Origin: Escherichia coli
GTDB taxonomy: Bacteria > Pseudomonadota > Gammaproteobacteria > Enterobacterales > Enterobacteriaceae
Length of the DNA stretch: 64,000 bases
Strand: one strand, 5' to 3'
NCBI RefSeq assembly: GCF_050920415.1
Contig: NZ_CP169309.1
Within the stretch, counting starts at the first letter, position 1, and every line of letters begins with the position of its first letter. The translations under genes and the position numbers were made by a program. Shown piece by piece: positions 20,516-21,781 of this stretch. The notes below the pieces were generated by a model. That model had not been told where the DNA came from. It did not search any database and saw only the letters and a program-made list of their open reading frames with translations.

Positions 20516-21781
20516 TTAAATTGTTCCATGATCTAGTTTTTTATTCCACAGATGTTTGAAGATATCTAATGTAGAAACGACATTCGCAGGAGACATTCGG
20601 TTCAATGATATAAGGAAAGGATGGTTCTCCACAAAGTGGATAAAACACGTCGCACTGTTCAAAGTTGCATGCCGCATCTCGCGGACTTTCTTACTGCCAG
20701 TGAGATTGCATACAGCCATTGAATAATTGCGGTTAGAAAATGCACGCCAGACATTGTTTCGTACCCCACCACTAAGGAATAATCGCGGTGGAAAATCAAT
20801 GCTGGCAGGTGCCACACCGCGCTCTTTGACAAAGGAAATATGGCAGCGACCTTGATGAATATGCTGCAAATAAGCCATCAGGCATCCGCCCAATATAAAG
20901 CATTCGTGATCAAGGTAATGCTGAACGTTAATGGAATGTTCATCGGTCAGTATTCTGACCAGTTCAAAATGACGATATGCAGGAAGAACCGGCTTCACCA
21001 GCATTCCCGGATCGTTTTGATGTAAAACTGCCGGGCCGTAATCAATATCAAACAAGGTATCCCGCCGCATAGTGAGTAACTCTTTGCGTTGGACATGATG
21101 TGCCAGCGTCCCTGGAGGCATACGCTCTTCATAGCTCGATGTGTATTGATAATGTTGCTCTACGGCAGATGGGGAGTAATTGGTTGAGATGGCAACCACC
21201 CTGCCGCTTTGTTCTTCTGCGGTAACAAGAGCATAAAGAGAGTTATTGCTACCATTATACTTGACGCGAAAAGCACGGGTACTCAGGGTAATATCAGAAG
21301 CAGGCAAACACTGTCGACTTTCTTTATAGTTTGCTCCACGCGCTAATTTTAACAGTTCTCGGCTAAGTCCAGTGCTGTTAAGAAGTAATGACTTTCTGAT
21401 ATCCGCAAGTGCCTCCCCTTGCTCAATCATCAATGCTAACTGGGCTCCTCGTGGTGTGGTAATTACATGTTCCAGAGTGATAAATGTTTTCTCACAATGA
21501 TGGCAATACATTCTTCTCTGGCCTTGTGCAGAATATCCATATTTTTTGAGAGACGTACTTCCGCAAGTTGAACATTGGCAAATCAAACCTCTCCAGGAGT
21601 GATTCACAATATTACGATAAATATTAAGCGACTGTTCAGATATCACTGGAAACAAGTAACCACATTCACGGCATAAAATATTTTTACCCTGTGCGACATA
21701 ATCCTGGCTATTCAGCAACCCCAGGTTTTTACATCCTGGTGTTTTGCAACAATCAACATTTACGTTGGTAAACATATCCAC
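20516..21781 (-). CDS. Cys-rich 421-aa protein with two N-terminal zinc-ribbon motifs (transposase-type ribbon); function unknown
   Basis: N-terminal 100 aa hold 10 Cys in CxxC-type pairs; the second ribbon CSTCGS...RRMYCHHCEKTF resembles IS1/IS1595-type transposase zinc ribbons; no radical-SAM CxxxCxxC motif; AT-rich; last gene of a same-strand block with the sulfatase. Absent from K-12 at this position. Confidence 0.5.
   Translation of the reverse strand: MDMFTNVNVDCCKTPGCKNLGLLNSQDYVAQGKNILCRECGYLFPVISEQSLNIYRNIVNHSWRGLICQCSTCGSTSLKKYGYSAQGQRRMYCHHCEKTFITLEHVITTPRGAQLALMIEQGEALADIRKSLLLNSTGLSRELLKLARGANYKESRQCLPASDITLSTRAFRVKYNGSNNSLYALVTAEEQSGRVVAISTNYSPSAVEQHYQYTSSYEERMPPGTLAHHVQRKELLTMRRDTLFDIDYGPAVLHQNDPGMLVKPVLPAYRHFELVRILTDEHSINVQHYLDHECFILGGCLMAYLQHIHQGRCHISFVKERGVAPASIDFPPRLFLSGGVRNNVWRAFSNRNYSMAVCNLTGSKKVREMRHATLNSATCFIHFVENHPFLISLNRMSPANVVSTLDIFKHLWNKKLDHGTI

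Follow-up and report, generated by a model that had tools for sequence, protein, structure and literature searches.

Locus and gene X

The stretch of DNA analysed here, referred to as the window, consists of 64,000 nucleotides (nt) of Escherichia coli contig NZ_CP169309.1 (assembly GCF_050920415.1), chromosomal DNA with 100% identity to strain MFDS1022581. It contains a gene, termed X here, that is found on the minus strand in the order nhaR, nhaA, X, a sulfatase gene and a frameshifted gene for a Tsx/OmpK-like porin; beyond these are mokC/hokC/sok on the plus strand, followed by dnaJ and dnaK. An earlier note, made from the sequence alone, had proposed that the product of X is a domesticated transposase-derived DNA-binding protein or else a novel regulator or accessory factor. 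The properties described below lead us to conclude, with high confidence, that X is a domesticated, immobile derivative of the IS1 superfamily of insertion sequence (IS) transposases. A role in local transcription regulation is proposed with more reserve. Features of the locus are listed in Table 1.

Table 1. Features of the X locus (window coordinates; aa, amino acids)
Feature	Position	Strand	Remarks
Gene X, 419-aa probable IS1-superfamily transposase derivative	20516..21775	minus	RefSeq WP_000494931.1; open reading frame of the earlier note runs to GTG 21781
Zinc ribbon 1, aa 8-43 (C10, C15, C35, C38)	21647..21754	minus	conserved family-wide
InsA-like DNA-binding module (predicted), ribbon 2 and three-helix helix-turn-helix, aa 64-145	21341..21586	minus	hhalign, NF050000, AlphaFold2 helices
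RNase H-like (DDE transposase/integrase fold) domain, predicted, aa 158-419	20519..21304	minus	triad positions T166, P262, E291 by secondary-structure register
Terminator-like hairpin, 14 pairs, T-rich tail	21826..21856	minus	between sulfatase stop and X start; place of anSME in other genera
Periplasmic Ser-type sulfatase	21904..23397	minus	signal peptide; active-site motif SSPSRAGLLTGR
Tsx/OmpK-family outer-membrane channel gene	23418..24178	minus	frameshifted in this strain: open reading frames of 118 and 190 aa
Segment of ~4.0 kb (porin, sulfatase, X)	20526..24525		absent from E. coli K-12 between hokC/mokC and nhaA
CRP-like site TGCGA-N6-TCACG	24290..24305	minus	centred ~41 bp 5′ of the inferred transcription start
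Conserved oriented 18-bp element, candidate operator for X	24339..24356	minus	51 bp upstream of the CRP-like site

The open reading frame (ORF) described in the earlier note is real and lies on the minus strand, but its length of 421 aa, counted from the GTG, is probably two residues too long. Translation almost certainly begins at the ATG at 21775, because all homologues begin with MF, a GGGAG sequence is situated ~8 nt 5′ of this ATG, and it is also the RefSeq start; with the stop at 20516 this gives 419 aa. The product has no signal peptide. As the note had counted, exactly ten cysteines are present in the first 100 residues of the 421-aa version, and eight of them form two units of the CxxC...CxxC type. 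These eight (in 419-aa numbering, those of ribbon 1 in Table 1 and C68, C71, C91 and C94 of ribbon 2) show no or almost no variation, even in relatives with identities as low as 18%, and the remaining two, C9 and C66, are not conserved.

Transposase ancestry

Alignment of the family profile with IS1 InsAB′ by hhalign gives a probability of 96.5% and an E value of 9.7e-10, with X residues 64–145 corresponding to InsAB′ residues 4–88. The aligned stretch spans essentially the whole of InsA, i.e. the zinc ribbon and the helix-turn-helix (HTH). NCBIfam model NF050000 recognizes ~30 residues of ribbon 2 in X (30.4 bits, cut-off 28), and Pfam Zn_ribbon_InsA matches six of 36 family members at E<=1e-3, while X alone has no significant Pfam match. 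The likeness of ribbon 2 to IS1/IS1595-type transposases that the earlier note perceived is thus borne out for IS1 but not for IS1595: PF12760 (Zn_ribbon_IS1595) has an E value of 1.1 on X and of 3.6e-3 at best among the 36 relatives, and Pfam DDE_Tnp_IS1595 does not match X. Judged by these profiles, IS1 (InsA), and not IS1595, is the transposase family nearest to the N-terminal module. Ribbon 1 has no counterpart in IS1 InsA.

Models of complete transposases do not recognize X. The NCBIfam IS1 model NF033558 scores 22.4 bits against a cut-off of 100 and covers model positions 1–39 only, and the IS1249 whole-protein model of NCBIfam scores 16 bits against a cut-off of 300. Pfam DDE_Tnp_IS1 (PF03400), which genuine IS1 proteins do carry, matches neither X nor any of the 36 relatives. 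Searches of Pfam, NCBIfam, PHROGs and PDB sequences, in which X itself and the family profile served as queries, recognized the zinc ribbons alone, and yielded no full-length match to a characterized family of unrelated function.

The structure of X was predicted with AlphaFold2 from 27 homologues (pLDDT 76, pTM 0.80). In the model, ribbon 1 and ribbon 2 are followed by a three-helix bundle, with a pLDDT of about 90 for helices 108–153, and by a beta-beta-beta-alpha-beta-alpha-beta-alpha core. The C-terminal core (beta1-beta2-beta3-alpha1-beta4-alpha2-beta5-alpha) has the RNase H-like (DDE transposase/retroviral integrase) fold and matches solved transposases. Thus, the view that the C-terminal ~260–320 aa contain no assignable motif holds in so far as no Pfam or NCBIfam family is found there, but a transposase catalytic fold can be assigned. 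Both halves of X, the InsA-like ribbon/HTH module and the RNase H-like domain, are transposase-derived.

In DDE enzymes two aspartates are placed at the centre of strand beta-1 and after beta-4. The presumed counterparts of these positions in the X family have Thr/Ser in 34 of 36 sequences (position 166, centre of beta-1) and Pro in 35 of 36 (position 262, after beta-4), and E291 is the only universally acidic column among the 36 members. The IS1 motifs ‘EMDEQW’, ‘WMTDGW’ and ‘QRIERHN’, which supply the D, D and E residues, were tentatively matched to T/S166, P262 and E291 by AlphaFold2 secondary-structure register and alignment by eye. The X catalytic domain could not be aligned reliably with IS1 InsB by hhalign, whether a single sequence or a 17-sequence IS1 profile was used; the IS1 homologues were too alike. 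By this mapping X would appear to be without conserved carboxylates at two of the three triad positions.

The conserved polar residues of the family, the invariant H269 and E291 and the near-invariant H290, N199, R238 and W343, together with the RNase H-like fold, raise the question of whether X is a cytoplasmic RNase H-like nuclease or nucleic acid processor with a remodelled site (E291, H269, H290, D/N341) that functions in salvage. Two of the three canonical carboxylates nevertheless appear to be replaced family-wide by Thr/Ser and Pro, and X retains the sequence-specific DNA-binding module of a transposase. The gene context, which bears on this question in both directions, is considered below.

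Immobility and selection

X is present in 1275 of 5426 complete E. coli genomes, in exactly one copy in each and never on a plasmid. The few matches labelled ‘plasmid’ or ‘phage’ turned out to be mislabelled chromosomes or chromids, and there are no genuine plasmid or phage copies. No inverted repeats above chance-level short matches flank X, and neither inverted repeats nor target duplications are seen at the island junctions relative to K-12. The earlier statement that terminal inverted repeats are missing therefore holds for the gene and also for the island borders, and complete IS ends were not found.

A GTDB genome scan with the close X family as query placed X at an orthologous position in all 18 enterobacterial species with loci (~10 genera), directly after the sulfatase or anSME gene and usually by nhaA. 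The linkage to the sulfatase cluster also holds in relatives at 33–34% identity, including one located away from nhaA and one in convergent orientation. The full length of ~415 aa is kept from Escherichia to Buttiauxella and beyond, with a mean column identity of 67%. The ratio of nonsynonymous to synonymous substitution rates (dN/dS) of X is 0.06–0.15 in seven pairs with unsaturated dS, and that of the adjacent sulfatase is 0.02–0.04. Because X is single-copy, chromosomal, at an orthologous locus and has a low dN/dS, its mobility can be excluded independently of the triad mapping. Together with the dual transposase ancestry, the missing IS ends and the two apparently unconserved triad positions, these properties corroborate the proposal of the earlier note that X is a domesticated transposase derivative.

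It might still be argued that X is a live or recently active transposase, either of an unrecognized low-copy IS or of a larger transposon whose cargo is the sulfatase genes. Its transposase fold is intact, databases sometimes name the protein ‘IS1 family transposase’, and the island is found in only ~23% of E. coli genomes. However, the single copy per genome throughout the 1275 genomes, the constant place by nhaA across genera, the borders devoid of repeats or duplications, the scores far below the cut-offs of the IS1 and IS1249 models and the apparently unconserved triad all speak against this, and IS copies do not typically show so low a dN/dS over long divergence. The idea of a live element is largely refuted and we consider it very improbable.

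Even less credible is the view that X is a functionless, decaying remnant that owes its survival to chance or to its linkage with the sulfatase. Truncated X variants do exist in some strains and in Salmonella Typhi, and this E. coli lineage has a frameshifted porin and no longer has anSME. However, conservation at full length across genera and a dN/dS well below 1 in every pair measured refute this for the family as a whole, although individual strains could still fit. What the data favour is a domesticated protein under purifying selection.

Two X alleles are found in E. coli, with 1047 genomes at 95–99% and 226 genomes at 80–90% nucleotide identity to the X of the window. Relative to Escherichia sp. 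MOD1-EC7003, dS is 0.92 for X and 0.39 for the adjoining sulfatase, which suggests that a recombination boundary may lie between the two genes. This contrast agrees with the divergence of B2 from non-B2 strains reported for the neighbouring nhaAR genes (PMC4182557).

Relatives of X and their gene context

When 1.84 billion representative proteins were scanned exhaustively with HMMER, 101 relatives were obtained, including full-length ones down to 22% identity. A profile search with a broad alignment against a word-indexed database of 5.8 billion proteins added almost nothing. Foldseek places family members in Vibrio, Photobacterium, Serratia, Proteus and others, and also shows a group of 550–640-aa proteins termed ‘insertion element protein’. 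Database names given to the relatives include ‘IS1 family transposase’, ‘cytoplasmic protein’ and even ‘lactate dehydrogenase’.

In all 11 distant relatives for which the context is readable, the gene adjoins genes for scavenging of nucleosides, nucleotides or extracellular DNA, and eight of the 11 are divergently transcribed from these. Five are found beside a 5′-nucleotidase gene, four divergent and one directly downstream; three are divergent from nupC-deoCABD, nupC-udp or nupC-deoC-deoB-deoD-tsx operons; one is divergent from a deoB-like gene, a PNP/UDP-family phosphorylase gene and a nucleoside symporter gene; one is downstream of a PNP/UDP-family phosphorylase gene; and one is convergent with genes for Endonuclease I and an ExeM nuclease. 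The intergenic regions contain good CRP sites. Tsx, the family to which the porin of the E. coli cluster belongs, is a nucleoside channel family, and a tsx gene is present inside the divergent deo operon of one distant relative.

E. coli itself has a paralogue, X2 (WP_001309893.1), of 376 aa and 25% identity to X, situated between metF and metL in 1181 of 5426 genomes. X2 is divergent from a 5′-nucleotidase gene, and the 132 bp between the two include a perfect CRP site (locus L041 3002-4132, E. coli M7424; also L040, a Klebsiella-like contig). The E. coli and Klebsiella X2 loci are orthologous and were counted as one relative among the 11. A role of X in anti-phage defence was also considered and was rejected, as PADLOC models match neither X, X2 nor two distant relatives.

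The neighbourhood could be viewed as favouring the nuclease introduced above, since TatD, Endonuclease I and ExeM nucleases, nucleotidases and deo genes are among the genes found there. However, the neighbouring enzymes are periplasmic or extracellular and X lacks a signal peptide, and divergence from CRP-dependent operons is the classic arrangement of a regulator. With the residues at the triad positions and the retained DNA-binding module also taken into account, a nuclease function seems unlikely.

The sulfatase cluster

In most genera the cluster consists of genes for a Tsx-like porin, the sulfatase, a radical-SAM/SPASM maturase (anSME) and X, and X begins 11–45 bp after anSME. Loss of anSME with retention of X is seen in Escherichia, Klebsiella oxytoca, K. 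spallanzanii, Kluyvera and Phytobacter massiliensis. None of the Escherichia loci examined has anSME, and the Ser-type sulfatase of the window is therefore without a maturase of its own. An arylsulfate sulfotransferase (ASST) gene (Pfam Arylsulfotrans, 1.3e-99) joins the cluster in Salmonella, Citrobacter and Buttiauxella (L013 8348-10090; L026 1430-3124), which points to aryl (phenolic) sulfate esters as possible substrates. A truncated ASST remnant of 114 aa follows X in locus L002.

In the window the sulfatase gene is directly upstream of X on the same strand, with a 128-bp gap. The earlier note spoke of an apparent operon; the adjacency and shared strand are as described, but co-transcription in E. 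coli is uncertain because the gap contains the strong terminator-like hairpin. Perhaps the hairpin is a terminator, an attenuator or a scar of the anSME deletion. It is preceded by a promoter-like sequence, GTGACC-18-TATAAT (21918-21889). A search of Rfam assigned no RNA family to the hairpin, the sole match in the region being sok.

The position of X 11–45 bp after anSME in most genera, its eight conserved cysteines and its constant clustering with a Ser-type sulfatase that needs maturation suggest another possibility, i.e. that X assists sulfatase maturation or sulfate-ester metabolism, for example as a Zn/Cys-rich partner of anSME or as a chaperone of the sulfatase before export. Against this, X is under purifying selection in genera and species that have no anSME, and the distant relatives and X2 occur beside nucleotidase and deo genes, in neighbourhoods that have neither a sulfatase nor a radical-SAM enzyme. 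The cysteines belong to transposase-type ribbons and not to Fe-S motifs, and radical-SAM/SPASM models of Pfam and NCBIfam do not match X. Such an accessory role is decidedly improbable, and a regulatory role remains the preferred one.

In a table of SsrB ChIP and expression data, a two-gene operon from STM0036 is listed with a 5′-intergenic SsrB peak and a -4.0-fold change (PMC2837388). By LT2 numbering, this Salmonella operon (SL0037-SL0038) may correspond to anSME and the X orthologue.

The segment absent from K-12 was drawn by Lescat et al. as a ‘putative cerebroside sulfatase’ module beside nhaAR (PMC4182557). Just past its porin-side border are the sok antisense RNA (Rfam RF01794, 120 bits) and the mokC/hokC toxin gene (24644-24946, plus strand). 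Between rpsT and nhaR there is a decayed fimbrial operon (14316-17139, plus strand), in which the subunit gene is intact and RefSeq marks the chaperone and usher genes as frameshifted or truncated; in the same study this operon is the ‘adhesin/fimbrial’ module (PMC4182557). Uncharacterized ORFs of 490 aa (12600-14072) and 319 aa (17152-18111) flank this operon.

Cluster promoter and candidate operator

The cluster promoter precedes the porin gene, or the sulfatase gene where the porin gene is absent or inverted. It consists of three modules: the oriented 18-bp element; a CRP-like site, TGnGA-N6-TCAC, 49–52 bp after the first base of the element; and a -10-like TAATAnACT ~19 nt further on. In the window the transcription start was placed from the -10-like sequence TAAATATACT at 24264-24273, which would put the CRP-like site near -41.5 and the 18-bp element near -91.

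The 18-bp element was recognized by eye, anchored on the CRP-like site. Its enterobacterial consensus is AACAACAT-N4-TGACAC and the E. coli variant is AGACACAT-TTTC-TGAAAC. At two mismatches or fewer it is present at 11 loci, where by our own calculation ~0.1 would be expected per locus by chance, and with one exception it is situated in the cluster promoter region. Where the porin and sulfatase genes are divergent, there are two elements back-to-back, one for each promoter. A k-mer conservation scan of porin-upstream regions was marginal, with three of eight sequences compared with a maximum of two in shuffles.

The Escherichia variant is common to E. coli and E. albertii, and the clade in which X has 34–43% identity has an element variant of its own. 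This variation in step with the X clade weakly suggests a cluster-specific factor as the cognate protein. The consensus sequences of CytR, CRP and DeoR do not fit the element, and direct repeats of the ArcA or PhoB type fit it loosely and with the wrong spacing. The proposal that the 18-bp element is the operator of X is tentative, and we put its chances at distinctly less than even.

It should be pointed out that the back-to-back elements, 130–150 bp apart, resemble inverted terminal repeats (L013 3726-3743, minus, and 3891-3908, plus; likewise L015, L016 and L018). In addition, over 10 nt, CATTATCTGA, the Salmonella element is identical to the subterminal right end of IS1, which is probably due to chance.

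Proposed role

Our best reading, to which we give moderate confidence, is that X descends from an IS1-superfamily transposase, is now immobile, and has been retained by the host to bind DNA sequence-specifically and to regulate its cluster locally. The regulatory part of this proposal, taken by itself, comes from the gene context and the conserved promoter element, and we judge it slightly more probable than not to be correct.

The ribbon/HTH module of X would bind the oriented 18-bp element centred at about -91, and X together with cAMP-CRP might switch the cluster of porin, sulfatase, anSME and X (and ASST) on or off. Such an action would parallel that of InsA, a protein that attaches to IS1 ends and acts as a repressor of the IS1 promoter. 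The RNase H-like core, presumably catalytically dead, may have been reused for oligomerization and/or effector sensing. The paralogues and distant relatives would likewise be local regulators, of 5′-nucleotidase, nupC-deo, udp and extracellular nuclease genes. On a broader view, a single IS1-superfamily transposase might have given rise to a gammaproteobacterial family of transcription factors that serves scavenging operons in Vibrionaceae and Enterobacterales as well as the Tsx-porin/aryl-sulfatase cluster of Enterobacteriaceae, with binding to IS-end-like operators and a core that acts as sensor. This larger scenario is possible, although we would rate it somewhat short of an even chance.

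Several observations weigh against a regulatory transposase derivative. The triad of X was assigned by register and eye after profile alignment to IS1 had been unsuccessful, and columns 243 and 341 are partly acidic, leaving room for residual or altered catalysis. X2 is without the HTH segment, though both of its zinc ribbons are present. X closes the operon in most enterobacteria and is not divergent from it, a position less typical of a regulator. The E. coli element is degenerate, with four mismatches; no element in common was found with the promoters beside the distant relatives; and the 18-bp element could belong to another factor, as it loosely resembles the direct-repeat boxes of response regulators. 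With the degenerate element, the frameshifted porin and the missing anSME, the E. coli system may be partly decaying. In the literature, searches by locus tag and by concept yielded no study that ties X to transcription, and no functional characterization of X was found.

Comparison with known systems

The conversion of transposases to transcription factors is well documented in plants and animals, and transposases are the most abundant genes in bacteria. To our knowledge, very few bacterial transcription factors derived from transposases are known, and no DDE-type relative of IS1 was found among them in the literature. As far as we can tell, a DDE-fold, IS1-derived family that is tied to nucleoside scavenging and to a sulfatase cluster is new, as a computational inference. 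If correct, proteins of the X family are misannotated in databases, and X-like proteins become candidate regulators of the nucleoside-catabolism operons of Vibrio-like bacteria. It would also provide a handle on the uncharacterized sulfatase island that, situated beside nhaAR, marks extra-intestinal (B2-type) E. coli; the nhaAR locus has already been linked to virulence (PMC4182557).

As a Ser-type sulfatase (motif SSPSR) accompanied in most genera by a radical-SAM/SPASM maturase, the cluster resembles the Klebsiella atsBA type. It differs in having the Tsx-family porin, X and often ASST, and in the loss of the maturase in E. coli.

In E. coli, CytR and DeoR control the CRP-dependent promoters of nucleoside catabolism (deo, udp, tsx, nupC/G, cdd), and the presumed targets of the X family are genes of the same kinds (nupC-deo, udp, tsx and nucleotidases). 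The promoter layout is also reminiscent of the CRP/CytR arrangement, with a class II-like CRP site and a second conserved element ~50 bp upstream. However, CytR is a LacI-type and DeoR a DeoR-type protein, and neither has any kinship in sequence or fold with X.

TnpA-REP/RAYT has been called the first prokaryotic domesticated transposase (PMC8266576). Like X, the RAYTs are single-copy, chromosomally fixed and vertically inherited bacterial transposase homologues. In contrast, they are HUH proteins (IS200/IS605-type) that are catalytically active on REP, whereas X has a DDE-type fold with a triad that is apparently lost, and is tied to specific catabolic gene clusters.

The eukaryotic transcription factors FHY3/FAR1 stem from Mutator-like transposases, as has been established experimentally (PMC13306707). 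The route proposed for X is the same, with a zinc-finger DNA-binding domain kept, a dead core and a function in host gene regulation. The differences are that X is bacterial and of the IS1 superfamily, and that its regulatory activity is proposed from the genomic evidence.

A further comparison is with IS1 itself. Ribbon 2 and the HTH of X align with InsA/InsAB′, and in both proteins an RNase H-fold domain follows. X differs in that it is encoded by one ORF without a frameshift, has an extra N-terminal ribbon and has a catalytic-fold domain of ~260 aa as compared with ~145 aa in IS1. It also fails the IS1 whole-protein and DDE_Tnp_IS1 profiles, is without inverted repeats, single-copy and stationary, and apparently does not conserve two of the triad carboxylates. 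InsA is a site-specific repressor that binds IS1 ends, and the same activity is proposed for X.

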